DNA of 24,000 nucleotides from Acidimicrobiales bacterium (GTDB taxonomy: Bacteria > Actinomycetota > Acidimicrobiia > Acidimicrobiales > SKKL01). Of this stretch, positions 4,255-21,084 are shown in pieces (positions within the stretch are counted from its first letter, which is position 1; every line of letters starts with the position of its first letter). The translations under genes and the position numbers were made by a program. The stretch spans positions 2,025 through 26,024 of the forward strand of contig DATHSN010000163.1 of assembly GCA_035464115.1 (NCBI GenBank), given 5' to 3'. Under the pieces are notes generated by a model, which saw nothing but the letters and a program-made list of their open reading frames with translations, was not told where the DNA came from and did not search any database.

Positions 4255-4297
4255 CGGACGCTCCTCTCGGGGAGCGGCGCACGACGGGCGACGGTGC

Positions 4298-5761: not shown

Positions 5762-5818
5762 GGGGACCTCGGGTCGGCGGACGGGCGAAGGCGGACGCGC
5801 CCTCCCCGACCCGCGAGG

Positions 5819-6051: not shown

Positions 6052-6672
6052 ATGACCACGAGCAGCTTCGACGAGCGGGCGGCCACGTGGGACGACGACC
6101 CCGCGAAGGTGGCGCGCTCCCGCGAGGTCGCCGAGGCCATCGCCGCCGCGGTGCCCGTCGACCGCACGACCCGGATGCTCGAGTACGGGGCGGGCACCGG
6201 GCTCGTCACCCAGGCGCTGCGCGATGCCGTCGGCCCGGTCATCCTCGTCGACACCTCGGCGGGCATGCGCGCCGTCATCGACGCCAAGATCGCCGCCGGC
6301 GCCCTCCCCGACGCCCGCGTCTGGGACGTCGACCTGGCCACCCAGCCGCCGCCCGACGAGCAGGTCGACCTGGTCGTCACCGTCATGGCCATGCACCACG
6401 TCACCGACATCGACCGCGTGCTCGCCGCCTTCGCCGAGCTGCTCGTCGACGGCGGTCACCTCTGCGTGGTCGACCTCGAGGAGGAGGACGGCTCGTTCCA
6501 CGGCGAGGGCTTCGACGGCCACCACGGGTTCGCCCCCGACGACCTGGCCGACCGGCTGACCCGGGCCGGCTTCACCGACGTCGGCATCGACACCGTCCAC
6601 CACATCGAGCGCGACGGCGGCACCTACCCGGTGTTCCTGGCCACCGGCACCCGGGTGGCGCGCCCCTCCTGA
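6052..6672 (+). CDS. Class I SAM-dependent methyltransferase
   Basis: ORF track, 206 aa. Motif I is LEYGAGTGLVT, with an acidic post-I residue (VDTS) and later DLVVTVMAMHH. GAGGAG Shine-Dalgarno lies before the ATG. Confidence 0.85.
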   Translation: MTTSSFDERAATWDDDPAKVARSREVAEAIAAAVPVDRTTRMLEYGAGTGLVTQALRDAVGPVILVDTSAGMRAVIDAKIAAGALPDARVWDVDLATQPPPDEQVDLVVTVMAMHHVTDIDRVLAAFAELLVDGGHLCVVDLEEEDGSFHGEGFDGHHGFAPDDLADRLTRAGFTDVGIDTVHHIERDGGTYPVFLATGTRVARPS

Positions 6673-6691
6673 CCGACCGACGGGTCAGGAG
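6666..6691. terminator. Inverted repeat between convergent genes (9-bp stem, 8-nt loop); candidate bidirectional terminator hairpin
   Basis: CTCCTGACC (6666-6674) pairs with GGTCAGGAG (6683-6691) around loop GACCGACG. The TGA of the methyltransferase (6670-6672) and the TGA of doxX (6685-6687, minus) each sit inside one arm. There is no U-tract. Confidence 0.4.
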
Positions 6692-7197
6692 CGCTCGGGC
6701 CGCCAGAACACCGCGAGCAGGGCGACGGCGCCCCCGATGCCGGGCACTGCGGCCAGGGCCAGGCCGCTCGCCCCCGAGAACACGTCGAGGTCGAGCGCGG
6801 CGTCGAGCGACCACTCGCCGGCCCCGAGCGCGCCGAGCGAGAGGCTCAGCGCGGCGAGCACCATCACGTACTCCCAGCCCTCGCCCGGCCGGAAGATGAA
6901 GAACCCGTTGCCGCGGTGGTTGGTGACCCACGCCACGACCATCACGCCGAGCGCCCCGCCGGCGGCGAGCGACGTGCCGAGGCCGATGATGAGCAGGACC
7001 CCGGCCACCACCTCGGTGATGCTCGCCGTCCAGGCGTGCAGCCAGCCGGGCCGCATGCCGAGCGATTCGAACCACCCGGCCGTGCCGCTGATCTTGCCGC
7101 CGCCGACGATGTGGTTGACCCCGTGGGCGAGCATCACCGCGCCGAGCGCGACGCGCAGGACGGTCAGCGCCAGGTCGACCGCGGCGGCGTCGCTCAT
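6685..7197 (-). CDS. DoxX family membrane protein
   Basis: Last 170 codons of track ORF 6685..8745, from ATG 7197 (MSDAAAVDLALTVLRVALGAVMLAHGVNHIV...). It has four hydrophobic helices and the LRxxLGxxxxxHGxxK/H-type DoxX N-terminus. The rest of the track ORF is an R-rich shadow over the dynamin gene. Confidence 0.85.
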   Translation of the reverse strand: MSDAAAVDLALTVLRVALGAVMLAHGVNHIVGGGKISGTAGWFESLGMRPGWLHAWTASITEVVAGVLLIIGLGTSLAAGGALGVMVVAWVTNHRGNGFFIFRPGEGWEYVMVLAALSLSLGALGAGEWSLDAALDLDVFSGASGLALAAVPGIGGAVALLAVFWRPERS

Positions 7198-7231
7198 GGC
7201 GCGGTCGGGGCGGTGGCGGGCACGACGGCAT

Positions 7232-7249
7232 CCTGACACGGCGGTCAGG
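7232..7249. repeat. Inverted repeat CCTGAC-N6-GTCAGG overlapping the stop of the second dynamin-like gene
   Basis: Read directly: a 6-bp stem with a 6-nt loop, and the stop codon at 7245-7247 lies inside the right arm. Function unknown; it could be a weak hairpin between the DLP genes and doxX. Confidence 0.3.
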
Positions 7250-8699
7250 CCGATGCGACGAGGTGCTCGCAGAGGTGGACGGCGACGCGGGCGGCCTCGA
7301 CCACGGCGCGATCCGACATGGGGTTCTCGGCTCGCGCCTGCCACTGGCCGAGCGCGGCGAGCGCGGCGGCGCGCGTGGCATCGGGGGACGCGTCGGGATC
7401 GAGACCGAGCCGAGCGGTCACCGGTCCGCCGCCGGCCAGGCGCTCGAGGGCGTCGAGCTCGACCTCGCGCACGCGCAGCGCGCCCCCGCGGACGGCGTCG
7501 AGGAGGCGGATCTCGAGCAGCTCGCGAGCGCTGGCCGTGATCCGCTCGATCTCCCGGTCGACCCGGGCCGCCACCTCGCCGGGCAGCGACGGGGCCATCG
7601 CCTCGAGGGTGGCGAGCAACGAGCGGGCCTTCAAGGTGTCGGCACGGGCCCCGAAGCGCTCGACCAGGACGCGCCGGAGCTGCTCGATGCCCGAGACCTC
7701 CAGCAACGAGCGCGACAGCTCGGCGCTGGAGTCCACGCCCCCGACGGCGAGCCGCGCCATGGCGTGGCGGACACCGAACCACCCGAGGCGGTCGAGCAGG
7801 TCGTCGCGCTCCACCGCCGTGACCGGCAGCGCGGGGTCGTCGACGAGGAACCGGTCGGCGGTGAGCAACAGCTCGTCGCGACGCTCGGCGTCGAGCTCGG
7901 CGAGGCGGGCGAGCAGACGGAACTCCCGCTCGGCGAGCGTGGCACCGGCGACGGCGACCAGACCGGCGACCGGGAGCACCGTCTGGACGAGCCGCCGCAG
8001 CTTGGGTTCGCGTCGGTACCGGTCGGCGATGCGGGTCGCGGAGTCCATGGCGTCGAGGCGGCACGCGCCCACCTCGTCGGCCCGGGCGAGCACGCCGATG
8101 GCGTTCACGGGCGTCGGCCGGGCGAGGGCGTCGTCGTGGAAGGCCTCGAGGAACCGCACGTCGCTCGCGTGGGCGTGGCGCATCAGGTAGACGACGGCGT
8201 CGACCTCGGTGGGGCGCCCGTCGTCGGGGGCGAGCAGGGCCGTCGTCCGCCCCGAGACGTCGATCGAGATGGAGTCGATCCCGGGGGTGTCGACCAGGGT
8301 CATCGTCCGGAGCCGCGACGACGGCCACTCGACGTCGAGGCGGGCGATGTCGTCGGCGGGGGTGCCGGCCAGGTCGATGACGAGCGCCCCGTCGTCGCGG
8401 CTGAAGCGGGCCGGCCGCGGGAGGCCGTCGATGGGGTGCACGGTGACCCGGTAGGTGATCCCGTCGTGGTACCAGGTGACGATCCGGGTGCACTCGCCGA
8501 CGTCGGTGGGGGCCAGCTCCTCTCCCACGAGTGCGTTGAGGAGGGTCGACTTGCCCGCCTTCACCCGACCGGCGATCGCGACCCGCAGCGGCTCGTCGAA
8601 CCGCTCGAGGCCATCCCGCAGCGCCGCCGCCGCCGGGTGGTCGCCCACCTCGGCGACGGTGCCCTGCGCGAGGGCGCGGACCTCGTCGGCGAAGCTCAA
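7245..8699 (-). CDS. Bacterial dynamin-like protein (DLP), second gene of a tandem pair
   Basis: Track ORF 7245..8894, trimmed to TTG 8699. G1 is GRVKAGKST, G3 is LVDTPGIDS, and the G4-like motif is LARAD, followed by a long Arg/Leu/Glu-rich helical stalk. G/C-saturated third positions begin at the TTG, which overlaps the TGA of the upstream DLP (TTGA). The 5' part of the track ORF would overlap the upstream gene by about 200 nt. The alternative start is GTG 8648. Confidence 0.8.
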   Translation of the reverse strand: MSFADEVRALAQGTVAEVGDHPAAAALRDGLERFDEPLRVAIAGRVKAGKSTLLNALVGEELAPTDVGECTRIVTWYHDGITYRVTVHPIDGLPRPARFSRDDGALVIDLAGTPADDIARLDVEWPSSRLRTMTLVDTPGIDSISIDVSGRTTALLAPDDGRPTEVDAVVYLMRHAHASDVRFLEAFHDDALARPTPVNAIGVLARADEVGACRLDAMDSATRIADRYRREPKLRRLVQTVLPVAGLVAVAGATLAEREFRLLARLAELDAERRDELLLTADRFLVDDPALPVTAVERDDLLDRLGWFGVRHAMARLAVGGVDSSAELSRSLLEVSGIEQLRRVLVERFGARADTLKARSLLATLEAMAPSLPGEVAARVDREIERITASARELLEIRLLDAVRGGALRVREVELDALERLAGGGPVTARLGLDPDASPDATRAAALAALGQWQARAENPMSDRAVVEAARVAVHLCEHLVASA

Positions 8700-10552
8700 G
8701 CGGAGGACGCTCCCGCCTCGGGGCCACCCACCAGGTCGAGCGCACGGGCCCGCAACGCCGCGATCCGAGCCAGCTCGGCCTCGACGTCGGCGAGCCGCCG
8801 GCCGCGCTGGTCGCTCGCCGTCCGCTCGGCCTCCTGAGCGGCGCGCAGCGCCTCGTTGGTGGAGCGCTGCAGCTGCTTGGCGCGGTCCGCCCACGAGTCG
8901 CGCAGGTCGCGCTGGACCCGGCGCAGGGCGTCGCGGCTCTCCTTGCCGACGGCGAAGCTCACCTCGTCGACGTACTTGCGGTAGGTCTGCTTGGCCGTCT
9001 GGCGGCGCTGGGCGAGCTGGCGCTGCTGCTCCTCGCGCTGCTGCTTGCGGCCCATGGCCAGCCCGATGGCCACGCTCACCGGGGCGATCAGGGTGATGCC
9101 GACCATGCTGGCCAGCATCCCGAACATGAGCATCCCCCCGTAGCCACCGCGCAGGACCCCCAACGCGGTGTTCACCAGGTTCGTTCTCGTGACGTCGAGC
9201 TCGAGGTCGATGCGGATCCCCTCGAGCGACGGGAGCGGTCCGTCACCGAGGAGGTCGAGGGCTGCGTCGGCCTCCTCGGCGAAGAGGGCGGCGATGCGCG
9301 CCGACAGCGCCGCGGCCTGGTCCACGAGCACGGCGTGGTTGGCGGCCACCTCGTCGGCGACCACCCGCCGGAGCCACGGGTCGAACTCCTCCCAGATGTC
9401 GACCGGGTCGGCCGCCTCGATGCGGGTGTCGGCCTCGGCGAGGATGTGACGGAACCGAGCCCGCAGGTCGTGGTCGACGTCGGAGGTGAGGTCGGTGACC
9501 CCGTCGTTCAGGGCCGTCTGCCACCGGGCGCCACTCGACTCGAGCTGAGCGGCACGGGCCCGAGCCCGCTCGAGCTCGGCGACGAGCGCGGCGATGGCGG
9601 CCGGGTCGGCGAGGGCTCGGCGCTCGGCGTCGAACTCGACGGCGAGCTGGTCGCACACCCCGGCCACGTCGTGGGCGGCGGCGGCGACCTCGGCGGCATC
9701 GGACCGCGCGAGCACGTCGTCGCGCAGCCACCCGATGAGCGCGGGGTAGCCCGACTCCTCGTTGAGGGCCGGGTCGCTGCGCTCGATGGCCTGCTGGCGC
9801 ACCACGGCCGACAGGGGGAAGAGCGGCAGGTCGAGGCCCGCGGCGGCGAGGTGTCCCCGGTCGAGCTCGGCGACGCGGTGGCGCCGCGGCTGGAGGTCGG
9901 TCTTGGTGAGCGCCACGCACACGTGAGCGCAGCGATCTGCGGCCCGGCGCAGGGCGGCGAGCTCGGATTGGGTGAGCTCCTGGGAGGCGTCGGTGACGAA
10001 GACGGCGGCGTGCGCCACCGCCAGCGACCCCAGCGCGGCCGCGGCGTGCTCGCCCGCCAGTCCACCGACCCCAGGGGTGTCGACGAGGCGCAAGCCGGAG
10101 GCGAGCAGCCGGCGGGGCACGGTGACCTCGACCGACGTCACGGGCGTCGACCCCGCCCGGCCGGTGACGAGTGCCGGCACCTCCTCGGGGGCGAGCGGTG
10201 AGGGCCCGTCGGCCGACAGCGCGACGGCCTGCACCGTCTCGCCGAAGCGGACGGTGGTGGGCACGGCCGTGGCGATGTCGTCGTCGACGGGGCACACGCT
10301 CGTGCCGAGCAACGCGTTGACGAGGGTGCTCTTGCCCTGCTTGAACTCGCCGATCACCACCACCGCGACGCCCGGGTCGAGCAGCCGGCGTCGACGGTCC
10401 TCGACCCGCCGGGCGAGATCGTCGCGCCCGTAGGCCCCGCACGCGGTGAGGGCCAGATCGACGACCTGGGTGGCCGCGTCGAGGTGCGGCCGTCCCTGCT
10501 GCGGTGCGGTCGGCGCGCCGACGGTTCCACCCTCCCCGGATGCGGTCCCCAC
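8696..10552 (-). CDS. Bacterial dynamin-like protein (DLP) with hydrophobic membrane hairpin, first gene of the pair
   Basis: Track ORF 8696..10660, trimmed to GTG 10552. G1 is GEFKQGKST, G3 is LVDTPGVGG, G4 is TKTD. The hydrophobic paddle is GGYGGMLMFGMLASMVGITLIAPVSVAIGLAMG, followed by a charged coiled-coil-like tail. GTG 10552 lies 6 nt after TACACT. ATG 10660 would run 20 nt past the divergent Hsp70-like start. Confidence 0.8.
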   Translation of the reverse strand: MGTASGEGGTVGAPTAPQQGRPHLDAATQVVDLALTACGAYGRDDLARRVEDRRRRLLDPGVAVVVIGEFKQGKSTLVNALLGTSVCPVDDDIATAVPTTVRFGETVQAVALSADGPSPLAPEEVPALVTGRAGSTPVTSVEVTVPRRLLASGLRLVDTPGVGGLAGEHAAAALGSLAVAHAAVFVTDASQELTQSELAALRRAADRCAHVCVALTKTDLQPRRHRVAELDRGHLAAAGLDLPLFPLSAVVRQQAIERSDPALNEESGYPALIGWLRDDVLARSDAAEVAAAAHDVAGVCDQLAVEFDAERRALADPAAIAALVAELERARARAAQLESSGARWQTALNDGVTDLTSDVDHDLRARFRHILAEADTRIEAADPVDIWEEFDPWLRRVVADEVAANHAVLVDQAAALSARIAALFAEEADAALDLLGDGPLPSLEGIRIDLELDVTRTNLVNTALGVLRGGYGGMLMFGMLASMVGITLIAPVSVAIGLAMGRKQQREEQQRQLAQRRQTAKQTYRKYVDEVSFAVGKESRDALRRVQRDLRDSWADRAKQLQRSTNEALRAAQEAERTASDQRGRRLADVEAELARIAALRARALDLVGGPEAGASSA

Positions 10553-10558
10553 GCCGCA

Positions 10559-10564
10559 AGTGTA
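10559..10564 (-). promoter_or_regulatory. -10-like hexamer TACACT, 6 nt upstream of the DLP GTG start (leaderless arrangement)
   Basis: The minus strand reads TACACT-TGCGGC-GTG (plus-strand AGTGTA at 10559-10564). This is the TANNNT plus 6 nt geometry expected for leaderless actinobacterial transcripts. No -35 recognised. Confidence 0.35.
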
Positions 10565-10640
10565 CGGGCGGCGTCGACCCGGCTCGGCGGAGGTGTCGAG
10601 CGGTAGCCTGCGCGCGCCCGTCGAACGACCCAGGAGCGTG

Positions 10641-12686
10641 ATGGCGTACTTCCTCGGCATCGATCTCGGAACGACCTACACCGCGGCTGCGATCTCCCGG
10701 GAGGGTTCGGCCTCCGTCGTGAACCTGGGCAACCGTGCCCCGGTGGTGCCGTCGGTCGTGCTGCTGCGCGACGACGAGTCGATCCTCACCGGCGAGGCGG
10801 CGGTGCGGCGCGCCGCCACCGAACCCCAGCGGGTGGCTCGCGAGTTCAAGCGCCGCATGGGTGACCCCACGCCGATCATCGTCGGTGGGTCGCCGTACTC
10901 CGCCGATGCGCTCACCGCGTCGCTCCTGCGGTGGGTCGTCGAGAAGGTCACCGAGGTCGAGGGCAGCCCGCCGACCGGCATCGCGGTGTCGTATCCGTCG
11001 AACTGGGGTGAGTACAAGCAGGACCTGTTGCGCCAGGCGATCGCGCGCGCCGACCTCGACGGCGTGGTGATGGTCACCGAGCCCGAAGCGGCCGCCATCC
11101 ACTACGCCTCCCAGGAGCGCGTCGAGGCCGGCTCGGTGATCGCGGTGTACGACCTCGGCGGCGGCACGTTCGACGTGGCGGTGCTGCGCAAGACCGAGTC
11201 GGGCTGGGAGGTGCTCGGCGAACCTCAGGGCATCGACCGGCTCGGCGGCATCGACGTCGACGAGGCCGTGTTCCGCCACGTGGTCGACGCCACCGACGGC
11301 GTCATCACCGAGCTCGACCCCGACGATCCTGCGGCGCTCGCCGCCGTCGCCCGGTTGCGCCAGGAGTGCGTCGAGGCCAAGGAGGCGCTGTCGTCCGACA
11401 CCGACGTGCTCATCCCGGTGCTGCTCCCGAACCTGCAGACCGAGGTCCGCCTCACCCGGGCCGAGCTCGAGCAGATGGTGCGCCCCGCGCTCGCCGACAC
11501 GATCACCACCATGGGCCGGGCGCTGCGGTCGGCGGGTGTCGAGCCCGAGCAGGTCGACGCCGTGCTCCTGGTGGGCGGGTCGTCGCGCATCCCGCTGGTC
11601 GCGCAGCTCGTCGGCTCGGCGCTCAGCCGCCCGGTGGCGGTCGACGCCCACCCCAAGCACGGCATCGCCCTCGGCGCAGCGATGGTGGCCGCCGAGGCCG
11701 ACCGGGCCGGCACCGCTCCCGTCGCCGCACCCCTCCCGCCGCCCCCGGTCGCGCCTCCGGTCGCTGCACCCGTTCCGCCGCCCCCGGTCGCGCCCCCGCC
11801 CGTCACCGCGCCGCCCACTCCCCCGCCGGTCGCCGCCCAGCCCACCGAGCCGGACCCCGTCGTGGCCGCATCGCCGCCAGCACCGATCCTCGACCCGCCT
11901 CGCGGGCGGTCGGGGCCACCGCTCGGGCTCATCGCCGCAGCGGTGCTCGCGGTGCTGGTGGTGGCGGTCGTCGCGGTGGCCGCGCTCGGCGGCGGCGGCG
12001 ACGACGACGACGTGGTCGCCGCCGAGCCCGTCGGCAACGAGGCGCCGGCCGCCACCACGGCGCCACCAGCCGAGGACACGTCGACCACGTCCGTCACCGC
12101 CGCGCCACCAGTCGAGGACACGTCGACCACCGACCGCGCCTACGACGACGCCATCCGCGCCAACTTCATCGACGCGTGCGTCGTCGAAGGCACCCCCGAC
12201 GGGTGCGAGCGGGTGCTCCAGTGCATCGAGGGTCAGCTCACCCAGGCCGAGTTCATCCAGGAAGAGGCCGAGGCGACGGCCACCGGCGTGATGTCGGACC
12301 GGCTCAGCGACGTGGTGTCCGACTGTCTCGCCCGAGCGACCGCGCCGGTCCCGGATGGTCCCTTCGTGGCGCTCGACGCGGTCGTCGTCGACGGCGGCCT
12401 CTACCGCGTCAGCTACGAGGTGTTCGGCTTCGAGCCCCGGATCGACGGCGGCCCCGACTCGTTGCACCTGCACCTCTTCCTGGACACCACCGCACCCGAG
12501 AACGCCGGCGTCGACGGCAACCCTCCGGGCGAGTGGTACATCACCGACGCACCATCGACCGACGTCACGTCGTTCGGGCCGGCGAACCGGGGGGCGGCCA
12601 CCCAGATGTGCGTGGTCGTCGCCAACGTCGACCACTCGGTGCACGACCCGGAGTCGGGCACCTGCGTGGCCCTGCCCGACTCCTGA
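10641..12686 (+). CDS. Hsp70-family ATPase domain protein lacking a substrate-binding domain: NBD, Pro-rich linker, one TM helix, Thr/Pro-rich linker, Cys-containing extracytoplasmic domain
   Basis: Track ORF 10446..12686, trimmed to ATG 10641 (AGGAG upstream), giving 681 aa. Hsp70/actin-fold motifs: IDLGTTYT (phosphate 1), DLGGGTFDVAV (phosphate 2), LLVGGSSRIP (adenosine). The NBD ends near HPKHGIALGAAMVAAE. Then come a PPPPVAPP-type linker (about aa 360-420), the TM helix LGLIAAAVLAVLVVAVVAVAAL, GGGGDDDD, and a C-terminal region of about 185 aa with 6 Cys. Confidence 0.85.
   Translation: MAYFLGIDLGTTYTAAAISREGSASVVNLGNRAPVVPSVVLLRDDESILTGEAAVRRAATEPQRVAREFKRRMGDPTPIIVGGSPYSADALTASLLRWVVEKVTEVEGSPPTGIAVSYPSNWGEYKQDLLRQAIARADLDGVVMVTEPEAAAIHYASQERVEAGSVIAVYDLGGGTFDVAVLRKTESGWEVLGEPQGIDRLGGIDVDEAVFRHVVDATDGVITELDPDDPAALAAVARLRQECVEAKEALSSDTDVLIPVLLPNLQTEVRLTRAELEQMVRPALADTITTMGRALRSAGVEPEQVDAVLLVGGSSRIPLVAQLVGSALSRPVAVDAHPKHGIALGAAMVAAEADRAGTAPVAAPLPPPPVAPPVAAPVPPPPVAPPPVTAPPTPPPVAAQPTEPDPVVAASPPAPILDPPRGRSGPPLGLIAAAVLAVLVVAVVAVAALGGGGDDDDVVAAEPVGNEAPAATTAPPAEDTSTTSVTAAPPVEDTSTTDRAYDDAIRANFIDACVVEGTPDGCERVLQCIEGQLTQAEFIQEEAEATATGVMSDRLSDVVSDCLARATAPVPDGPFVALDAVVVDGGLYRVSYEVFGFEPRIDGGPDSLHLHLFLDTTAPENAGVDGNPPGEWYITDAPSTDVTSFGPANRGAATQMCVVVANVDHSVHDPESGTCVALPDS
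11736..11794. repeat. Duplicated 20-mer CCGCCGCCCCCGGTCGCGCC at a 39-bp period (Pro-rich linker)
   Basis: Read directly at 11736-11755 and 11775-11794. It encodes PPPPVAP twice within the linker of the Hsp70-like protein. Confidence 0.8.
12062..12130. repeat. Duplicated 27-mer (1 mismatch) at a 42-bp period in the extracytoplasmic linker
   Basis: GCCACCAGCCGAGGACACGTCGACCAC (12062-12088) and GCCACCAGTCGAGGACACGTCGACCAC (12104-12130). They encode APPAEDTSTT and APPVEDTSTT. Confidence 0.85.
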
Positions 12687-12716
12687 TCAGGCCCCGACCG
12701 CGCACCGCGAGACCGC

Positions 12717-13505
12717 TCAGTCGCCGAGCGACCCCCCGTAGATCTGCCAGGCCAGCACCGACTTCGCGCCGAGGCTGAGCACCAGGTAGGCCTTCTCGCC
12801 GAACACGTAGTCGGACCACCGGCTGATGCCGCGGTACTGCAGCCACTGGTTGAACCCGAAGCTGAAGAAGAACAGCAGCTGGGCGAAGAAGATGCCGTAG
12901 ACGAAGCCGGGGACCTCGTCGGCACCCACCAGGTTGGTGGCGATGGCGAGCCACGGTGCGAGCCCCACCAGGGTGCCGAACCAGAACGGCAGCATGGTGG
13001 TCGTCTCGCGCCCGGGCGGGTTCATCCGCTCCTGGATCCAGCCGAACAGGATCATGGCCACGTTGGCGCCGGCGATGGCGATGACGCCGGTGATGTCGGT
13101 GATGCCCGAGTACGACGCGATGAGCAGCACCATCAGCGTCGCGCTGAAGGAGTACTCCACCCAGCGGAACCGGTTGATGCCGGCGCGCAGGTCGGCTTCG
13201 TAGGTGCCCCGGGCGACCGTCCCGGTGAGCAGGTGGTCGAGGGCCGCGAGCCCGAGGAACACGGCGATGGCCACGCCGATGCGGATGTCGACCAGGCCCT
13301 CGGGGGTGGGGGTGCGGGTGCCCGGCGGGCCCTCGGGGTAGGTCGACGTGAGGGTGATGGCGAAATCGCTGGCGAGCACCAGGATGAGCACCGCCTGGGC
13401 GGCGTGGAGCACGGTGAGCCCGATGTTCCACGTGCGCAGGTTGGCGAGGCGTTCGGGGGTGACCCCGGAGGCGGTCGGGCCCGGCCGTGAGGCGGTCGAT
13501 GACAT
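12717..13505 (-). CDS. Heliorhodopsin (retinal-binding seven-helix photoreceptor with inverted topology)
   Basis: ORF track, 262 aa. Collinear blocks match my recollection of heliorhodopsin 48C12: YPEGPPGT (48C12 LNGPPGT), FRWVEYSFSATLMVLLIA (FRWVEYSLSSSVMIVLIA; Glu is the counterion), MILFGWIQE, LPFWFG, VPGFVYGI, and AYLVLSLGAKSVLAWQIYGGSL (AYIVLSLVAKSALAWQIFSGTL). The putative Schiff-base Lys is K248, codon AAG at 12762-12764. Conserved His residues occur in helix 1 (VLHAAQ) and helix 2 (LDHLL). GAGGAG Shine-Dalgarno lies 7 nt before the ATG. Confidence 0.9.
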   Translation of the reverse strand: MSSTASRPGPTASGVTPERLANLRTWNIGLTVLHAAQAVLILVLASDFAITLTSTYPEGPPGTRTPTPEGLVDIRIGVAIAVFLGLAALDHLLTGTVARGTYEADLRAGINRFRWVEYSFSATLMVLLIASYSGITDITGVIAIAGANVAMILFGWIQERMNPPGRETTTMLPFWFGTLVGLAPWLAIATNLVGADEVPGFVYGIFFAQLLFFFSFGFNQWLQYRGISRWSDYVFGEKAYLVLSLGAKSVLAWQIYGGSLGD

Positions 13506-13562
13506 GGGGGATCTCCTCGTGGCGGACGAACGTCCTTCGGAGGCTACCCACGGCCGGGTCGA

Positions 13563-13568
13563 TAGATT
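13563..13568 (+). promoter_or_regulatory. -10-like hexamer TAGATT, 8 nt upstream of the methyltransferase GTG
   Basis: Read directly as TAGATT-CCGACGTC-GTG, consistent with a leaderless or near-leaderless transcript. It lies in the 71-bp divergent region shared with the heliorhodopsin gene. Confidence 0.3.
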
Positions 13569-13576
13569 CCGACGTC

Positions 13577-14173
13577 GTGCAACACGAGTGGGTGAGGATC
13601 ACCGAAGCCGACCCCGACCACTCGGCTCGCTACGCCGAGCGGTTCCGGGCGATGGCGGCCGAGGGCCGCGACCTCGCCGGCGAGGCGCGGCTGGTCGACG
13701 CCATGGTCCCCCGCGGCGCCCACGTGCTCGACGCCGGCTGCGGACCGGGCCGGGTGGGTGCGTTCCTCCACGCCGCCGGCCACCAGGTGGTCGGGGTCGA
13801 CATCGACCCGGTGCTCGTCGCCGCCGCCGAGGCCGATCACCCCGGTCCCCGCTGGATCGTGGGCGACCTGGCCGAGCTCGACCTCGCCGCCCACGGCATC
13901 GGCCACCGCTTCGACGCCATCGTCTCGGCCGGCAACGTGATGACCTTCGTGCACCCCGCGACCAGGGTCGAGATCCTGCGCCGGCTCGGCGCCCACCTGG
14001 CCGACGACGGTCGCGCCGTCATCGGCTTCGGCGCCGGGCGGGGCTACGAGTTCGACGCGTTCCTCGCCGACGTGGCCACCGCCGGGCTCGCGCCCCACCT
14101 GCTGGTGTCGAGCTGGGACCTGCGTCCGTTCACCACCGACTCCGAGTTCCTGGTCGCCGTCGTCGGTCGGTGA
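13577..14173 (+). CDS. Class I SAM-dependent methyltransferase
   Basis: Track ORF 13487..14173, trimmed to GTG 13577; the upstream part would overlap the heliorhodopsin start. Motif I is VLDAGCGPGRVG, post-I is VVGVDID, followed by IVGDL and FDAIVSAGNV. Confidence 0.8.
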   Translation: MQHEWVRITEADPDHSARYAERFRAMAAEGRDLAGEARLVDAMVPRGAHVLDAGCGPGRVGAFLHAAGHQVVGVDIDPVLVAAAEADHPGPRWIVGDLAELDLAAHGIGHRFDAIVSAGNVMTFVHPATRVEILRRLGAHLADDGRAVIGFGAGRGYEFDAFLADVATAGLAPHLLVSSWDLRPFTTDSEFLVAVVGR

Positions 14174-14266: not shown

Positions 14267-15088
14267 GTGAGCATCGTCGAAGCGGTGGTGCTCGGGATCC
14301 TCCAGGGTCTGACCGAGTTCCTCCCGATCTCGTCGAGCGGCCACCTGCGGATCGCCCCGGCCCTGTTCGGGTGGGACGACCCCGGCGCCGGGTTCACCGC
14401 GGTCGTCCAGCTCGGGACCATGGCCGCGGTGCTCGTCTACTTCTGGAGCGACCTCTGGGCGATCGGCACCACCTGGCTGCGCTCGCTCGTCGATCGCGAC
14501 CTGCGGGCGGACCCCTCGGCCCGGCTCGGGTGGTACCTCATCGTGGCCACCATCCCCATCGGGATCTTCGGCCTCGCCTTCCAGGACCAGATCGAGACCG
14601 GGGCGCGCGACCTGCGCATCATCGCCTCGGCCCTGATCCTTCTGGGGCTCGGCCTCGCCGTCGCCGACCGGGTGGGGTCGCAGAGCAAGGCCATGGACGA
14701 TCTGCGACCCCGCGACGGCATCCTCATCGGCGTGGCGCAATCGCTGGCGCTGATCCCCGGCGTCTCGCGCTCGGGGGCCACCATCTCGGCCGGGCTCCTC
14801 GCCGGGTACAAGCGCGCCGACGCCGCCCGCTTCTCGTTCCTGCTCTCGGTGCCCGCCGTCGTGCTGTCGGGCCTGTTCCAGCTGCGCGACGCCACCAGCG
14901 CCGACGGCGCCGGCCTGGTCGCCACCGCGGTCGCCACCATCGTGGCCTTCATCAGCGGCTACGCCTCGATCGCCTGGCTGTTGCGGTGGCTCACCACCCA
15001 CAGCACCGCCGTCTTCGTGATCTACCGCGTGGCCCTCGGCGGCCTGGTGTGGATCCTGCTCCTCCTCGGGACCCTCGAGCCGACCTGA
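14267..15088 (+). CDS. uppP: Undecaprenyl-diphosphate phosphatase (BacA/UppP)
   Basis: ORF track, 273 aa, GTG start. Both UppP signatures are present: GLTEFLPISSSGHL and ALIPGVSRSGATI. The protein is an eight-helix polytopic one. Confidence 0.9.
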   Translation: MSIVEAVVLGILQGLTEFLPISSSGHLRIAPALFGWDDPGAGFTAVVQLGTMAAVLVYFWSDLWAIGTTWLRSLVDRDLRADPSARLGWYLIVATIPIGIFGLAFQDQIETGARDLRIIASALILLGLGLAVADRVGSQSKAMDDLRPRDGILIGVAQSLALIPGVSRSGATISAGLLAGYKRADAARFSFLLSVPAVVLSGLFQLRDATSADGAGLVATAVATIVAFISGYASIAWLLRWLTTHSTAVFVIYRVALGGLVWILLLLGTLEPT

Positions 15089-15218
15089 GCGAGGTGGTGG
15101 ACCGGTGGTCGTCGATGGCCCGGGCGGCGGCGAGCGACGCGGGCTCGAGTGTCGACCAGGACCCGTTCCGGTCGAGCCGGGCGCGGAATGCCGATCGGCC
15201 GGGGCCGGTTCCCCCGCC

Positions 15219-16604
15219 GTGACCGTTGCGTACGATCTGGTGGTGGTGGGCGGTGGCGCCGGCGGGCTGGTCGCCGCCAAGGAGGCTCGCCGTCGCGGCG
15301 CCTCGGTGGTGATCGTCCAGGACGGTCCGGTGGGCGGCGACTGCACGTTCACCGGATGCGTCCCCTCCAAGGCGCTGCTGGCCGCCGCCGCGTCGGGCGC
15401 CGACTTCGACGACGCCATGGGCCGCGTCCACCGGGCCGTCGAGCGGATCGCCGCCACCGAGGACGCCGCCGCCCTCGCCGCGTTCGACATCGACGTGATC
15501 GACGGCTTCGCCCGCTTCACGTCGCCCACCAGCCTGGAGGTCGACGGGCGCACCATCTCCTCACGCCGCTTCGTGGTCGCCACCGGCGCCCGCCCCTCCC
15601 TGCCCCCCATCCCCGGGCTGCGCGAGTCGTCACCGCTCACCACCGAGACGCTGTTCGACCTGTCGAGTCGACCGGGGTCGATGATCGTGCTGGGCGGCGG
15701 GCCCATCGGCTGTGAGATGGCCCAGGCCTTCGCCCGCCTCGGCACCCGCGTCACCCTCGTCGAAGCCCTCGACCGGATCCTGCCCCGCGAGGAGCCCGAC
15801 GCGTCGGCGGTGATCGCCGAGGCGCTCGCCGCCGACGGGGTCGACGTGCGGGTCGGCGCGACGGTCGAGCGCATCGAGCAGATGGTCGACGGCCAGGTGT
15901 GCGCCCACCTCGCCGACGGCTCCCGGGTGGGGGCGACGCACCTCCTCGCCGCCATCGGGCGGGTGCCGTCGGGACGCGGGTTCGGCCTCGAGGACATCGG
16001 CGTGGAGCTCGACGCACGGGGCGCCGTGGTCGTCGACGCCACGCTGGCCACGTCGGTGCCCGGCATCTGGGCGGTGGGCGACGTGACCGGGGGCCTGCAG
16101 TTCACCCACGTCGCCGGGCGCATGGGGTGGGTGGCAGCCTCCAACGCGCTCTCCAAGCTGGCCCGCGTCCGCGGCTTCCGGTTCGACCCGACCAACGTCC
16201 CGTGGGCCACGTTCACCGCCCCCGAGGTGGGCCGGGTCGGGCTCACCGAGGCCGAGGCCGCCGCCCTGCACCCCACCGCCCGGGTGGCCCACCTCCCCCT
16301 CGACCACGTCGACCGGGCCATCGCCGTGGGCGCCGAGCGGGGCTTCGTGAAGCTCATCGCCGCCCCCAAGCGGGGGGCCCGCCACCTCGGGGGCGGGCGG
16401 CTGGTGGGGGCCACCATCGTGGCGCCCACCGGGGGCGACCTGGACCACGAGGCCGCCCTCGCCATGCAGACCAACATGTTCGTCGGCCGGCTCGCCCAGA
16501 CCGCCCACGCCTACCCCACGTGGGCGGCGGCGGTGCAGCAGGCCGCCCTGCAGTTCTTCGGGACGTCGTCGGGCTTCACGGCCCGCCCCGTCCGAGCCGG
16601 GTAG
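15219..16604 (+). CDS. Class I FAD-dependent pyridine nucleotide-disulfide oxidoreductase (dihydrolipoamide dehydrogenase / mercuric reductase-like)
   Basis: Track ORF 15105..16604, trimmed to GTG 15219 so that the FAD Rossmann motif DLVVVGGGAGG is N-terminal. The redox-active CxxxxC is GGDCTFTGCVPSK. The second Rossmann motif is IVLGGGPIGCE, followed by GDVTGG and a C-terminal HAYPT (His of the interface dyad). No metal-binding NmerA-like domain. Confidence 0.85.
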   Translation: MTVAYDLVVVGGGAGGLVAAKEARRRGASVVIVQDGPVGGDCTFTGCVPSKALLAAAASGADFDDAMGRVHRAVERIAATEDAAALAAFDIDVIDGFARFTSPTSLEVDGRTISSRRFVVATGARPSLPPIPGLRESSPLTTETLFDLSSRPGSMIVLGGGPIGCEMAQAFARLGTRVTLVEALDRILPREEPDASAVIAEALAADGVDVRVGATVERIEQMVDGQVCAHLADGSRVGATHLLAAIGRVPSGRGFGLEDIGVELDARGAVVVDATLATSVPGIWAVGDVTGGLQFTHVAGRMGWVAASNALSKLARVRGFRFDPTNVPWATFTAPEVGRVGLTEAEAAALHPTARVAHLPLDHVDRAIAVGAERGFVKLIAAPKRGARHLGGGRLVGATIVAPTGGDLDHEAALAMQTNMFVGRLAQTAHAYPTWAAAVQQAALQFFGTSSGFTARPVRAG

Positions 16605-16637
16605 ACCAGCGACGAGGTCGTCAGCGGCCGCCCCCCG

Positions 16638-16657
16638 AAAGGGACGAAGGTCCCGGC
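16638..16657. promoter_or_regulatory. DosR/DevR-like palindrome GGGAC-N4-GTCCC upstream of the USP genes
   Basis: AAAGGGACGAAGGTCCCGGC compared with the recalled M. tuberculosis DosR consensus TTSGGGACTWWAGTCCCSAA. Both GGGAC/GTCCC cores and the 4-nt spacing are exact; flanks are poor (13 of 20 by hand). The centre is about 130 nt before USP GTG 16778. No response regulator gene in the window. Confidence 0.3.
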
Positions 16658-16777
16658 CGAATGGCCCACCCTCCCCGGGACGTAGCCGCACCTGGTCCGT
16701 AGCGTGGCAGGTGACCCGATGGGGGGTCATGTCGTGCCGGGAAGCCTGGTCGGCGAGCGTCCAGGAGGTCGCGCGCC

Positions 16778-17716
16778 GTGATCAGCAACGCCGTCGGCAC
16801 GGTCTCGTTCCGCAGCATCCTCGTCTGCCCGCTCCGCTCCGACGAGCGGCCCGACCCGCTCCGCCGGGTGGTCGAGCTGGCGCGACGGTGCGACGCGCGC
16901 ATCACCCTGCTCGGGATCCTCCGTGAGCCCCCGCGGGTCGTCACCCCCTTCATGAGCCAGGAGCGCCTCGAGCGCATCGCCCGGGCGGAGCACACCGCGA
17001 TGGAGCAGCGGCTGGACCGCATGGCGACGCAGTGCGATGCGCCAGACGCCGAGGTCGCGGTCCGGGTCGGGAACCCGGCGCTGACCATCGTCGCCGAGGT
17101 GCTCGCGGGCGGCCACGACCTGGTGGTCGTCACCTCCGACGAGGATCGGGAAGACCGCGCCACCCTCCGGCGGCTGCTGCGCAAGTGCCCCGCGCCGGTC
17201 TGGGTCATCCGACCGACGCGGGCCCGGGTCCAGCGGGTGATGGTGTCGGTCAGCGCGGAGCCCGACGAGGAGGACCTGAACCGGCATCTGCTCGACCTCG
17301 GCGCCACCGTCGTCGGGCTCGGCGGGGGCGAGCTCCACGTGGTCCATGCGTGGCAGGTGTTCGCCGAGGACGCCCTTCGCCTCTTCGGCGACTGCTCCGA
17401 CGCTGACATCGCCGACCTCCGGCGCGAGGAGAGATCGGCGCGTGACCGTGAGGTCCTCGCCCTCCTCGAGACGTCGGCCGCCGCCACCCTCGACTGGACG
17501 CTGCACCTCGAGCACGGGCCGCCGGCTCCCAGCATCATCGACCTGGTGCGCCGCAAGCGCATCAACCTGCTGGTGATCGGCACGGTGGCCCGCACCGGCT
17601 TCAGCGGACTGCTGATGGGCAACACCGCCGAGCAGGTCCTCGACGAGGTCGACTGCTCGGTGCTGACGGCGAAGCCCGAGGGATTCATCACGCCGATCGC
17701 CGGCGCCAGCTCGTGA
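16778..17716 (+). CDS. Tandem-domain universal stress protein (UspA family)
   Basis: ORF track, 312 aa, GTG start with AGGAGG upstream. It has two USP-like halves. The C-terminal half carries the ATP-binding-type motif LLVIGTVARTGFSGLLMGNTAEQV. Confidence 0.85.
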   Translation: MISNAVGTVSFRSILVCPLRSDERPDPLRRVVELARRCDARITLLGILREPPRVVTPFMSQERLERIARAEHTAMEQRLDRMATQCDAPDAEVAVRVGNPALTIVAEVLAGGHDLVVVTSDEDREDRATLRRLLRKCPAPVWVIRPTRARVQRVMVSVSAEPDEEDLNRHLLDLGATVVGLGGGELHVVHAWQVFAEDALRLFGDCSDADIADLRREERSARDREVLALLETSAAATLDWTLHLEHGPPAPSIIDLVRRKRINLLVIGTVARTGFSGLLMGNTAEQVLDEVDCSVLTAKPEGFITPIAGASS

Positions 17717-17757
17717 TCGGCCAGTCGAGCTCCATGCTCACGACCCAGGGAGGCGTC

Positions 17758-18597
17758 ATGAAGCGGATCATCGTCGGAACGGACGGCTCGCCCGGCGCGG
17801 CGAACGCCCTGCGGTGGGCGGCTCGCCTCGCGTCCCGCCACGGCGCAGAGGTCGTGGTGATGACCGGCTTCGTGCCGGTCGACTCCGAGCTGCGGCCGCC
17901 GCGCATCGAGGTGCTCCTCGCCGAGCAGGAGACGCGGTTGGAGACGTGGAGCGAACCGGCTCGGCTCGGTGAGCTCCGGGTGCGGACCGTCGTCGAACGG
18001 GGTGACCCGCGCCCGGCCATCCTCGCCGTCGCCGAGCGCGAGGACGCCGACCTCGTCGTGGTGGGACGGGTCGGCGACTCCGCCGGACCCGGGGTGTTGC
18101 ACCTCGGCAGCATGGCGGAGTGGCTGGCCCACCACGCCGATCGCCCGGTGGCGGTGGTCGGAGGCCAGGTCGACCTGAGCACCCGCACCGCGCTCGTGGC
18201 CGTCGATGGCTCAGCCGGATCCCGCGCTGCGGTCCGATGGGTCCTCGCCATGCGAGGCGACGCCGACATGCAGGTCACCGCGGCGTCGGTCGAGCGCGTC
18301 CCGCTCGAGTGGACGCCCGCCGACAGCCCGCAGAACTGGCGCCGCGACCTCGAGCGGCGGATCCTCGATGACTACGCGTCCGAGCTCGTCGACGCCGGAC
18401 TCGAGATCAACGCGCTCGCCCGCAACGGTGCCGACGTCGCCGGCGCTCTGCTCCAGGCGGCCAAGGACGAGCGCAGCGATCTCGTCGTCGTCGGCACGCG
18501 CGGTCTGGGCGGCTTCACCGGCCTGCGGGTCGGTGGTGTCTCGCTCAAGACCCTGCACCGCGCCGACCGCCCGGTCGTGCTCGTGCCGCCCACGTGA
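17758..18597 (+). CDS. Tandem-domain universal stress protein (UspA family)
   Basis: Track ORF 17713..18597, trimmed to ATG 17758 (GGGAGG upstream). It begins MKRIIVGTDGSPGAANALRWAA. First-domain end: DLVVVGRVG...GSMAEWLAHHADRPVAVV. Second-domain motif: LVVVGTRGLGGFTGLRVGGVSLKTLHRADRPVVLV. Confidence 0.85.
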   Translation: MKRIIVGTDGSPGAANALRWAARLASRHGAEVVVMTGFVPVDSELRPPRIEVLLAEQETRLETWSEPARLGELRVRTVVERGDPRPAILAVAEREDADLVVVGRVGDSAGPGVLHLGSMAEWLAHHADRPVAVVGGQVDLSTRTALVAVDGSAGSRAAVRWVLAMRGDADMQVTAASVERVPLEWTPADSPQNWRRDLERRILDDYASELVDAGLEINALARNGADVAGALLQAAKDERSDLVVVGTRGLGGFTGLRVGGVSLKTLHRADRPVVLVPPT

Positions 18598-18600
18598 AGC

Positions 18601-18617
18601 GCGGGCAGCCTGCCCGC
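18601..18617. repeat. 17-bp perfect palindrome GCGGGCAG-C-CTGCCCGC between USP2 and the NOX-like gene
   Basis: Read directly. It starts 4 nt after the USP2 stop and ends 25 nt before ATG 18643. It could be a short hairpin or an operator; no U-tract. Confidence 0.3.
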
Positions 18618-18642
18618 CGATGAAGGTCAAGGAGTGGTTGTG

Positions 18643-20058
18643 ATGGATCGCGACGCGCGCCTCTGGGTCGCGGCCGGTGCCTACGCGTTGGTCACCCTCG
18701 CCCCGCTGTTCGTCATCCGGATCGGCACGACCGTGCCCCAGCGCGGCTTCTGGGTGGAGTTCGCGGTGGCCCTGGGGTTCATCGGCCTCGCCATGTTGTG
18801 CCTCCAGGCCGTGCTCACCGCCCGCTACCCGAAGGTCACGGTGACGCTCGGTCAGGACGCCATGCTGCAGTTCCACCGCCAGGCGGGTCTCGTCGGGTTC
18901 GGGTTCGTCATGTTCCACCCGGTGATCCTCCTCGCCACCGACGGCGACTACTGGGAGTTCCTCGACCCCCGGGTGAACTTCCTGCGCGCCATCTTCTTGA
19001 TCATCGCCGTGGTGGCGCTCCCGGCGATCATCGCCACGTCGTTGTGGCGCGACCGGCTGCGGATCCCCTACGAGTGGTGGCGCCTCGGCCACGGCGCCCT
19101 GGCCGTGCTCATCGTGATCATCGGGCTCGTCCACATCACGCGGGTGAGCTACTACCTCGAGAGCCTCTGGAAGCAAGGGCTGTGGCTCGCGATCGGCGTC
19201 GCGTCGATCGGCAGCGTGGCCTACGTGCGGGTGCTCACCCCGGTGCGCTCGGGCCGTCACCCCTATTCGGTCGCCGCGGTCGAGCCCCTGGCGCGGCGCA
19301 CGTGGCGGGTGCGGGTCGAGCCCGACGAGTCGACGCACCCGCTCGACTTCGACGCCGGGCAGTTCGCGTTCGTCACCATCGCCGACTCACCCTTCTCCTT
19401 GGAGCAGCACCCGTTCTCGGTCGCCTCGAGCGCTCGGGAGGCCACCCACCTCGAGTTCGCGGTGAAGGAGCTCGGCGACTTCAGCGCCACCATCGGTGAT
19501 GTCGAGCCGGGTCAGCGGGTCTACGTCGACGGCCCCTACGGCTCACTGGCACTCCCCCGCGGGGACGCGCCCGGTGTCATGTTCCTGGCCGCGGGCATCG
19601 GGATCACGCCGATCATCAGCATGCTGCGCACGCTGCGAGACGACCGCAGCGAGATGTCGGCCGTGCTGGTGTGCGCCAACGAGCGACCCGACGACATCGC
19701 CTACCGCGACGAGATCGACGCGATCGCCGAGGTCATCGACCTCACCGTGGTGCACGTGGTCGAGCACCCCGACGCCGACTGGTCGGGGGAGACCGGCCGC
19801 ATCTCCCGGGAGCTCGTCGCCCGGGCGCTACCCGCCGATGCGGCACGCTGGCACTACGTGGTGTGCGGTCCGCCGCCGATGATGGAGGCCGTCGAGGGCG
19901 CCCTCGTCGACCTCGGGGTGCCGATCGAGCGGGTGGAGTCGGAGCGGTTCGACATCGGCGCGGCCGGGATGGTGGGACGCCGGGGCGCCGGGGTGCGGCG
20001 ACGGGTGCTGGCGCTCGGCGCGCTGCTCCTCGTGGCGGCCGCCGCGTTCGCCTGGTGA
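18643..20058 (+). CDS. Ferric-reductase/NADPH-oxidase-like membrane flavocytochrome (FRD heme domain plus FAD- and NAD(P)H-binding domains)
   Basis: Track ORF 18634..20058; ATG 18643 is preferred (AAGGAG 8 nt upstream). Two His pairs in hydrophobic helices each have 13 intervening residues: QFHRQ...MFHPV and LGHGA...GLVHIT. HPFS is the FAD motif, GIGITP is the NAD(P)H motif, and CGPPPM is present. There is an extra C-terminal hydrophobic helix, VLALGALLLVAAAAFAW. Confidence 0.85.
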   Translation: MDRDARLWVAAGAYALVTLAPLFVIRIGTTVPQRGFWVEFAVALGFIGLAMLCLQAVLTARYPKVTVTLGQDAMLQFHRQAGLVGFGFVMFHPVILLATDGDYWEFLDPRVNFLRAIFLIIAVVALPAIIATSLWRDRLRIPYEWWRLGHGALAVLIVIIGLVHITRVSYYLESLWKQGLWLAIGVASIGSVAYVRVLTPVRSGRHPYSVAAVEPLARRTWRVRVEPDESTHPLDFDAGQFAFVTIADSPFSLEQHPFSVASSAREATHLEFAVKELGDFSATIGDVEPGQRVYVDGPYGSLALPRGDAPGVMFLAAGIGITPIISMLRTLRDDRSEMSAVLVCANERPDDIAYRDEIDAIAEVIDLTVVHVVEHPDADWSGETGRISRELVARALPADAARWHYVVCGPPPMMEAVEGALVDLGVPIERVESERFDIGAAGMVGRRGAGVRRRVLALGALLLVAAAAFAW

Positions 20059-20151
20059 CGCGGATCATGCCGGAACCGTCCACACCGGCACGAGACTTCT
20101 TCGTCTCCTAGCGTCGCATGGCGGTACGACCCAGCAGGGAAGGGTGCCGCC

Positions 20152-21084
20152 GTGGGGGCCAGCGGACCAGACCGAACCGACCGCTACCGGGGAGCGCTGG
20201 TGGGCGTGGCCGTGGGCGACGCGCTCGGCGCGGCGTTCGAGGGTCACCCCGGCCCGGTGCCGCCCGCCGCCCTCCGCGAGCACCTCGACGGCACCGGTCG
20301 GGCCCTCTACACCGACGACACCGCGCTCACCATCGCCACCGCCGAGTCGCTGCTCGACGCCGACGGCCTCGACCTCGACCACCTCGCCGCCGCGCTCGCC
20401 GCCGCCCACCACCGCGAGCCCGGCCGGGGCTACGGCGCCGGCACCGCGTCGCTGCTCGCCCGCATCCAGGCGGGCGGCGACTGGCGCCCGCTCGCGGCCG
20501 GGCAGTTCGGGGGCACCGGGTCGTTCGGCAACGGCGCGGCCATGCGCTCGGCGCCGATCGCCCTGTTCGCCGGGCGCCACGCGGTGCGCGCCGCCGATCT
20601 CGCCCGCCGGGCGGCGCGCACGACCCACACCCACACCGTGGGGGTGGAGGGCGCCGCCGCTCTGGCCGCCGCGGTGGCCCTCGTGCTGGGCGGCACCGAC
20701 CCGGGGATGGTGGCCCACGAGCTCCAGGTCGTCGTCCACGACCCCGACCTGCGCGAGCGGTTGTGGGCGGTGGGCGACCTGCCGACGGGCGAGAGCGCCC
20801 CGGTCGTCGCCCGCGTCACCGGCACCGGGGTCAGCGCCGCGGAGTCGGTGCCCGCCGCGATCGCCGCGTTCGTCACCCACCCCGACGGGTTCGCCGACAC
20901 CGTGGCGTTCGCCATCTCGCTGGGTGGCGACACCGACACCATCGCGTCGATGGCCGGGGCGCTGGCCGGCGCCCACCACGGGTACCGGGCCATCCCCGAG
21001 CACTGGGTGGCCCGCACCGAGGGCTGTCCTGTCCTCGTCGAGCTGGCCGACCGGCTGGCCGCGCGCCACCGCCACGACGGCTGA
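20152..21084 (+). CDS. ADP-ribosylglycohydrolase family protein (DraG/ARH-like)
   Basis: ORF track, 310 aa, GTG start with GGAAGG upstream. ARH motifs: RYRGALVGVAVGDALGAAFE, YTDDTALT, GNGAAMR and SLGGDTDTIASMAGALAGA. Confidence 0.85.
   Translation: MGASGPDRTDRYRGALVGVAVGDALGAAFEGHPGPVPPAALREHLDGTGRALYTDDTALTIATAESLLDADGLDLDHLAAALAAAHHREPGRGYGAGTASLLARIQAGGDWRPLAAGQFGGTGSFGNGAAMRSAPIALFAGRHAVRAADLARRAARTTHTHTVGVEGAAALAAAVALVLGGTDPGMVAHELQVVVHDPDLRERLWAVGDLPTGESAPVVARVTGTGVSAAESVPAAIAAFVTHPDGFADTVAFAISLGGDTDTIASMAGALAGAHHGYRAIPEHWVARTEGCPVLVELADRLAARHRHDG

Follow-up and report, generated by a model that had tools for sequence, protein, structure and literature searches.

A 48C12-like heliorhodopsin gene at a non-conserved location in an Acidimicrobiales contig

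Heliorhodopsins lack an agreed physiological role. Among the structurally characterized members is 48C12 (PDB 6su3, 6su4, and 6uh3), a subfamily 1 protein from an actinobacterial fosmid, and partner-regulating heliorhodopsins are described in AbHeR with glutamine synthetase (GS) (PMC9529153), TfHeR with photolyase (PMC9769723), and OcHeR with the OmrDE ABC exporter (PMC11109279), the partner gene in each case lying in the heliorhodopsin operon. Ten partner groups are recurrent, i.e., GS, NAD+ synthetase, photolyase, MerR, TerC, ABC transporter, SDR, alpha/beta hydrolase, DUF2177, and DUF2238, and only 18.8% of actinobacterial heliorhodopsin genes are in an operon with a neighbor (Cho et al. 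2024, PMC11109279). Two-component and redox genes are enriched near heliorhodopsins, for which a monoderm host is expected (Bulzu et al. 2021, PMC8612252). Here we analyze a stretch of 24,000 nucleotides from an Acidimicrobiales bacterium (contig DATHSN010000163.1, positions 2,025 to 26,024 of the forward strand; hereafter the window), in which a heliorhodopsin gene occupies positions 12717 to 13505 of the minus strand. The window protein is like AbHeR, TfHeR, and OcHeR in belonging to the same family and in its positively charged cytoplasmic loops, but both neighbors of its gene are on the opposite strand. Overall, the gene is of an already known kind and its location is not conserved.

Identity, fold, and family of the window heliorhodopsin

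The open reading frame (ORF) comprises 262 codons from an ATG, with zero internal stops, and its GC content at third codon positions (GC3) is 0.93, on par with that of the adjacent genes. Its features are given below with the numbering of the window protein and, in parentheses, the 48C12 equivalents.

12717..13505, minus strand: heliorhodopsin coding sequence, 262 amino acids plus stop (intact ORF, ATG start, profile and PDB matches, AlphaFold2 model)
13513..13518, minus strand: putative GAGGAG Shine-Dalgarno/ribosome-binding site, read from the sequence, 7 nt 5' of the heliorhodopsin ATG
13404..13406, minus strand: codon for H34 (H23), from the 48C12 alignment and relatives
13233..13235, minus strand: codon for H91 (H80), from the 48C12 alignment and relatives
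13155..13157, minus strand: codon for E117 (E107), predicted Schiff-base counterion within FRWVEYS, from the 48C12 alignment and relatives
12762..12764, minus strand: codon for K248 (K241), predicted Schiff-base Lys in helix G; reads AAG, from the alignment, and is invariant in 119/119 relatives

An earlier reading of this DNA, made without database searches (the sequence-only reading), had called the ORF a heliorhodopsin, and the profile searches bore this out. The ORF matched Pfam PF18761 over profile positions 1-242 of 242 (E=3.1e-95; 318.6 bits, cutoff 26.7) and the NCBIfam equivalog NF038020, "heliorhodopsin HeR" (E=4.9e-78; 262 bits against a cutoff of 100), and its top matches in the PDB were 48C12 (E=1.1e-65) and a Thermoplasmatales heliorhodopsin (E=2.4e-45). 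The motifs quoted in that reading were all located, namely FRWVEYS at residues 113-119, ILFGWIQE at 152-159, LPFWFG at 172-177, VPGFVYGI at 198-205, and SLGAKSVLAWQI at 244-255, and its placement of the Lys, the Glu, and both His residues held in the 48C12 alignment, where K248 falls on K241, E117 on E107, H34 on H23, and H91 on H80. At the sequence level, the family match is well beyond chance and the ORF is a genuine, intact heliorhodopsin, predicted to be of the inverted-topology, retinal-binding receptor type. A 100-codon ORF inside the gene on the opposite strand (12901-13203, plus strand; GC3 0.97) was rejected as a gene, its high GC3 arising because the frame shares third-codon positions with the high-GC heliorhodopsin gene.

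Identity to 48C12 is 46.7% over 242 aligned residues. Kovalev et al. (bioRxiv 10.1101/767665) list the residues that define three regions (Schiff base, cytoplasmic cavity, and E149), and 13 of these 14 (in 48C12 numbering S237, S111, S76, N101, Y108, N16, E230, R104, Y92, E149, Q216, Y226, W105, and Q213) are identical in the window protein, the exception being S76, which is Ala (A87). Also kept, in addition to K241, E107, H23, and H80, are 48C12 residues Q26, S242, W246, and Q247. In window numbering, the counterion stabilizers S244 and S121 are present, as are all the polar residues of the cytoplasmic cavity (H34, H91, N111, Y118, N27, E237, R114, and Y102).

The window protein differs from 48C12 in an EF loop that is 5 residues shorter and in the substitutions S76 to Ala, N207 to Phe at the lateral fenestration, P40 to Thr, and Y179 to Asn (A87, F214, T51, and N191 of the window protein), all of them clade-wide and all inside the normal variation of the family. 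The four substitutions were considered as unusual active-site changes and rejected as such, being clade-wide in essentially all 119 relatives. The same positions also vary across 90 diverse full-length family representatives. Position 76 is Ala in 119/119 clade members and, across the representatives, Ser in 48 and Ala in 34; position 207 is Phe in 116/119 clade members and, across the representatives, Asn in 29, Ala in 12, Ser in 11, and Phe in 9.

The AlphaFold2 (AF2) model of the protein (pLDDT 85.2, pTM 0.79) has seven helices and a beta-hairpin in the A-B loop (strands 49-54 and 69-75), and superimposes on the 48C12 structures 6su3, 6su4, and 6uh3 with a TM-score of 0.88 to 0.90 and a root mean square deviation of 1.8 A. 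In Foldseek searches with the model, TM-scores were 0.86 to 0.92 to 48C12 and TaHeR versus 0.52 to 0.74 to type-1 rhodopsins (0.54 to 0.67 for type-1 rhodopsins with normalization to query length). The predicted fold is of the heliorhodopsin type and distinct from that of type-1 rhodopsins. Counted on the model helices, Lys plus Arg number 10 in the presumed cytoplasmic loops and helix caps versus 2 outside, and Asp plus Glu 6 versus 8, a distribution that agrees with the predicted inverted topology and a cytoplasmic N terminus as judged solely by the positive-inside rule. R225, R229, and K238 are in or beside the F-G loop.

A search over 5.8 billion proteins gave, among the candidates that were scored, 5,795 homologues with E<=1e-20, and the 119 relatives listed are 73 to 87% identical to the window protein, which is itself already present, in identical form, in the public ENA metagenome assembly ERZ27272644, on contig k141_670462. 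We also found 80 species-level genomes with a 69 to 85% identical heliorhodopsin, nearly all of them Acidimicrobiales/Ilumatobacteraceae metagenome-assembled genomes (MAGs) plus a few other Actinomycetota. The uncharacterized heliorhodopsins of Acidimicrobiia/Ilumatobacteraceae MAGs (annotated "heliorhodopsin HeR" at NCBI) are 69 to 87% identical over their full length and have the same clade-specific residues; their gene neighborhoods differ, and the window gene has none of theirs. On these comparisons, the window heliorhodopsin is an ordinary representative of a known and very large family.

The actinobacterial context proposed in the sequence-only reading is consistent with these relatives, since the nearest heliorhodopsin and UppP (undecaprenyl-diphosphate phosphatase) relatives come from Acidimicrobiales/Ilumatobacteraceae MAGs (Actinomycetota); the UppP gene of the window lends support in that its top named matches are Acidimicrobiales proteins. 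The GC content of the window is 70 to 78%. A host inferred as Actinomycetota from the relatives of both proteins is of the monoderm type expected for heliorhodopsins. Possible heliorhodopsin paralogues were seen among the related loci: one contig (L047) carries a further heliorhodopsin-cluster ORF three genes downstream of the first, and MAG JTS-RE252 has two separate heliorhodopsin contigs (L018 and L049), seemingly two paralogues.

Transcriptional setting and conservation of the neighborhood

The elements and genes that flank the heliorhodopsin gene are as follows.

10644-12686, plus strand: Hsp70-like protein, membrane-anchored, in convergent orientation to the heliorhodopsin gene (Pfam HSP70 match at E=2e-53, confined to the nucleotide-binding domain)
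12636..12697, no strand assigned: imperfect 25-nt inverted repeat, arms 80% complementary and 12 nt apart; candidate bidirectional terminator without a U-tract
13506..13576, no strand assigned: divergent intergenic region of 71 bp, in which the heliorhodopsin promoter and that of the methyltransferase-UppP-oxidoreductase string must both lie
13577-14173, plus strand: S-adenosylmethionine (SAM) methyltransferase, divergent from the heliorhodopsin gene
14267-15088, plus strand: UppP
15105-16604, plus strand: FAD pyridine-nucleotide-disulfide oxidoreductase (nearest to the MerA and "FAD-containing oxidoreductase" models, below their cutoffs)

The two distances given in the sequence-only reading were confirmed: the stop codons of the heliorhodopsin and Hsp70-like genes are 30 bp apart (12687-12716), and the divergent gap to the methyltransferase gene is 71 bp, taking GTG 13577 as the methyltransferase start. 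The same GTG is used as the start by the public annotation of the identical ENA contig; an alternative, longer in-frame methyltransferase start, the GTG at 13487, would give an overlap of 19 nt with the heliorhodopsin start. The 71-bp region contains no match to the sigma-70 consensus, which is uninformative for a high-GC actinobacterium, and consensus scans for promoters and terminators around the heliorhodopsin gene gave zero matches. The inverted repeat at 12636..12697, which runs across the stop of the Hsp70-like gene into the 30-bp gap between the convergent genes, folds with -44.5 kcal/mol, not significantly better than shuffled sequence (z-score of only -1.3), and may, at a stretch, serve as a shared terminator.

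Because both flanking genes are on the opposite strand, the heliorhodopsin gene is not in an operon with either neighbor and is most likely transcribed alone. The same arrangement, with a convergent downstream and a divergent upstream neighbor, was found in 10 of 66 related loci. Whereas an operon partner would be adjacent, on the same strand, and cotranscribed, the neighbor families here are HSP70 and SAM methyltransferase, on the opposite strand. Neither GS, photolyase, nor an ABC exporter adjoins the window heliorhodopsin gene. ABC components are represented in the window solely by FecCD importer permeases, 8.6 kb from the heliorhodopsin gene, and its alpha/beta hydrolase is 7.6 kb away on the opposite strand.

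Conservation was examined from the heliorhodopsin side by tblastn of 16 window neighbor proteins against the flanks (+-10 kb) of 80 related genome loci. The window neighbors were absent from all 80, the lone match, in one locus (L050), being to an unrelated oxidoreductase with 31% identity at a distance of 8 kb. The 87%-identical metagenomic relative lies downstream of an Fpg/Nei glycosylase gene on the same strand, and the 85%-identical one has a cytochrome P450 gene downstream of it, followed by several toxin-antitoxin pairs and a TrwC relaxase gene; neither shares any window neighbor. These two closest relatives (L085-L087 and L082) are thus in very different places, and the toxin-antitoxin/TrwC surroundings suggest a mobile or integrative element.

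The converse search gave a similar picture. At 14 metagenome loci with an Hsp70-like homologue (50 to 78% identity), there was no heliorhodopsin, dynamin-like, or UppP gene nearby, a result that did not change when matches with E<=1e-3 were admitted and low-complexity filtering was switched off. On the two long contigs with Hsp70-like homologues, the flanks were an acyl-CoA ligase and a beta-lactamase-family gene. Three UppP homologues on long contigs were in other neighborhoods, which lacked any heliorhodopsin or Hsp70-like gene close by. Among the 137 immediate heliorhodopsin neighbors of the clade, tallied by Pfam family, the commonest family was NmrA/NAD_binding_10, often with DUF2867 (9/137), and HSP70 and BacA were outside the 25 commonest families.

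The linkage being unconserved in either direction, the neighborhood is uninformative on heliorhodopsin partners. It is idiosyncratic to the source genome, and the local neighbors are most likely there by chance. The premise of the sequence-only reading that a new genomic context would be informative therefore fails, this context being absent from the 80 genomes, the two closest relatives, and the 14 Hsp70-like loci.

Proposed function and alternatives

We consider it quite probable that the window protein is a functional member of the actinobacterial, 48C12-like heliorhodopsin subfamily, a slow-photocycle sensor specified by a stand-alone gene whose neighbors are there by chance. By analogy with 48C12, TaHeR, and other characterized heliorhodopsins, from which photochemistry and regulatory mode are carried over to the identity and predicted fold established above, all-trans retinal would be bound to K248 through a protonated Schiff base whose counterion would be E117, and illumination would drive a slow photocycle with no ion pumping. 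The protein would act as a light sensor or regulator, altering another protein by direct contact via its positively charged cytoplasmic loops. The gene would be transcribed from its own promoter within the 71-bp divergent region and, as it stands alone in a window with no retinal gene, any partner protein and the retinal source would have to come from genes outside this neighborhood or be acquired from the environment.

Several points weigh against this proposal. Retinal binding, the photocycle, and the existence of a partner would all follow from characterized relatives. No retinal or carotenoid gene is present within the 24-kb window; the sequence-only reading had noted the absence of a retinal-biosynthesis gene, and a Pfam scan of all window genes likewise found none (blh, carotenoid oxygenase, or crt). 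There is no agreement in the literature on what heliorhodopsins do physiologically; proposals include GS, photolyase, an ABC transporter, viral proton transport, and a carotenoid antenna. Finally, synteny is generally poor in the lineage, the UppP homologues also having varied neighbors, so that the non-conservation of the neighborhood weakens, without fully excluding, a lineage-specific functional link.

Functional coupling of the heliorhodopsin to these local neighbors, by membrane contact or through the shared 71-bp control region, nonetheless appears highly improbable. Light could on such a reading modulate either the Hsp70-like protein and the dynamin-like GTPases encoded beyond it, in membrane repair or remodeling, or the methyltransferase-UppP-disulfide reductase group, in envelope or redox stress. 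The small gaps of 30 and 71 bp are in line with this, as are the membrane nature of both the Hsp70-like protein and UppP and the wealth of stress and redox genes in the window (DoxX, disulfide oxidoreductase, two tandem-Usp proteins, and a NOX-like ferric reductase), which loosely fits the enrichment described by Bulzu et al. 2021 (PMC8612252). However, these neighbors are shared with 0/80 related genomes and 0/2 of the closest metagenomic relatives, the Hsp70-like homologues (50 to 78% identity, 14 loci) are never beside a heliorhodopsin gene and the three UppP homologues likewise, both neighbors are on the opposite strand, and their families are outside the ten recurrent groups of Cho et al. 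2024. Even less probable is a recruitment of the heliorhodopsin beside the Hsp70-like ATPase and the dynamin-like pair as light input to a membrane-damage or remodeling response or to the divergent UppP-disulfide reductase envelope operon. If true, this would represent a new class of heliorhodopsin partner.

We know of no energy-conserving output for bacterial heliorhodopsins, which counts against the protein being mainly a light-harvesting, two-chromophore rhodopsin with an exogenous xanthophyll at its lateral fenestration rather than a partner-regulating sensor. Xanthophyll recruitment has been proposed for heliorhodopsins in general (Kornilov et al. 2025 preprint), and the motif given there as predictive is present in the window protein (aromatic pair F174/F213, G181, and the small residues T178 and G217). 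Yet the Asn said to position the carotenoid (48C12 N207, called conserved) is Phe here, as it is in almost the entire clade, and the hypothesis is based on docking and sequence analysis in the preprint, so that such an antenna function seems very unlikely. We regard as very unlikely that the product is an apo-opsin or conditionally inactive, in a host that cannot make retinal and relies on environmental retinal, the gene perhaps having been recently acquired or relocated and contributing little. The 24-kb window indeed has no blh, carotenoid-oxygenase, or crt gene, and gene location varies widely among relatives, one of which, near toxin-antitoxin modules and a TrwC relaxase gene, suggests mobility. 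The absence of retinal genes says little, however, because only 24 kb of the genome is covered, and the ORF is intact with a host-like GC3 of 0.93. Moreover, the chromophore-pocket residues are all invariant across the 119 relatives, a sign of selection for retinal binding.

Had a new gene linkage been conserved, it could have pointed to a testable partner, but there is no such linkage here. The preferred reading, a stand-alone 48C12-like sensor gene, adds one such gene to the thousands of heliorhodopsins in public data and nothing new on heliorhodopsin function. It does provide a useful negative, in that the Hsp70-like, dynamin-like, and UppP neighbors are not to be taken as partner candidates from this window.

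Other window genes and recurrent contexts in relatives

The window was mapped by GC3 frame analysis together with Pfam and NCBIfam scans, which bore out the neighbor identities in the sequence-only reading (an Hsp70-like gene on one side and a methyltransferase-UppP-disulfide reductase string on the other). The remaining genes are as follows.

1-5818, minus strand: complete Mrp/Mnh-type multisubunit cation/proton antiporter cluster (Pfam/NCBIfam)
6052-6672, plus strand: SAM methyltransferase
6685-7245, minus strand: DoxX
7245-8699 and 8696-10552, minus strand: two dynamin-like GTPases with a 4-bp overlap
16778-18597, plus strand: two tandem-Usp proteins
18634-20058, plus strand: membrane NOX-like ferric reductase (Ferric_reduct, FAD, and NAD domains)
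20152-21084, plus strand: ADP-ribosylglycohydrolase
21156-22019, plus strand: alpha/beta hydrolase
22100-24000, plus strand: two FecCD permeases

The subunits of the antiporter cluster are two Proton_antipo_M proteins, MnhE, MrpF, MnhG, MbhD/E-like, MnhB, and NuoK-like. Downstream of UppP, redox and stress genes follow one another on the same strand (15105-21084), namely the disulfide oxidoreductase, the two tandem-Usp proteins, the ferric reductase, and the ADP-ribosylglycohydrolase. A weak Lycopene_cycl match on the oxidoreductase, below the Pfam cutoff, was put down to the shared Rossmann fold. Scans of the window for tRNAs and Rfam families gave zero matches.

In the Hsp70-like protein, an actin-like ATPase domain is followed by a linker rich in Pro, a single transmembrane helix at about 427-448, and, placed outside, a conserved C-terminal domain some 100 amino acids long; the single hydrophobic helix near residues 427-448 agrees with the membrane anchoring proposed in the earlier reading. 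Its gene diverges over a 91-bp gap from the operon of the two dynamin-like GTPases (7245-12686 for the whole arrangement). The Hsp70-like homologues in soil metagenomes (50 to 78% identity) are not beside dynamin-like genes and the pairing appears to be lineage-specific; a literature search found no specific published link between Hsp70-like and bacterial dynamin-like proteins.

Better leads on heliorhodopsin partners are found in the relatives, i.e., a photolyase-related/SDR/NmrA-DUF2867/heliorhodopsin string and, at two loci, a B12-binding MerR regulator; both contexts fit already published categories. In the first, the heliorhodopsin starts at the end of a gene for a protein of about 550 amino acids with NmrA-like NAD(P)-binding and DUF2867 domains or, in six loci, 4 bp into that end. 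The loci with this context, which lies some 2 to 3 kb upstream of the heliorhodopsin match, belong to a subset of the Ilumatobacteraceae relatives (L009, L010, L011, L014, L015, L020, L026, and L036), and in several of them an SDR gene and a divergent photolyase-related (DPRP) gene precede. The NmrA/DUF2867 string is the most recurrent operon-like context of the clade and plausibly represents a light-response module. At the two other loci (L007 and L013), the heliorhodopsin gene has a P-type ATPase gene on one side and, on the other, a gene for a MerR-type regulator with B12-binding domains, a LitR/CarH-like light-responsive architecture. In other relatives, the heliorhodopsin gene lies by SelO, P450, or Fpg/Nei genes.

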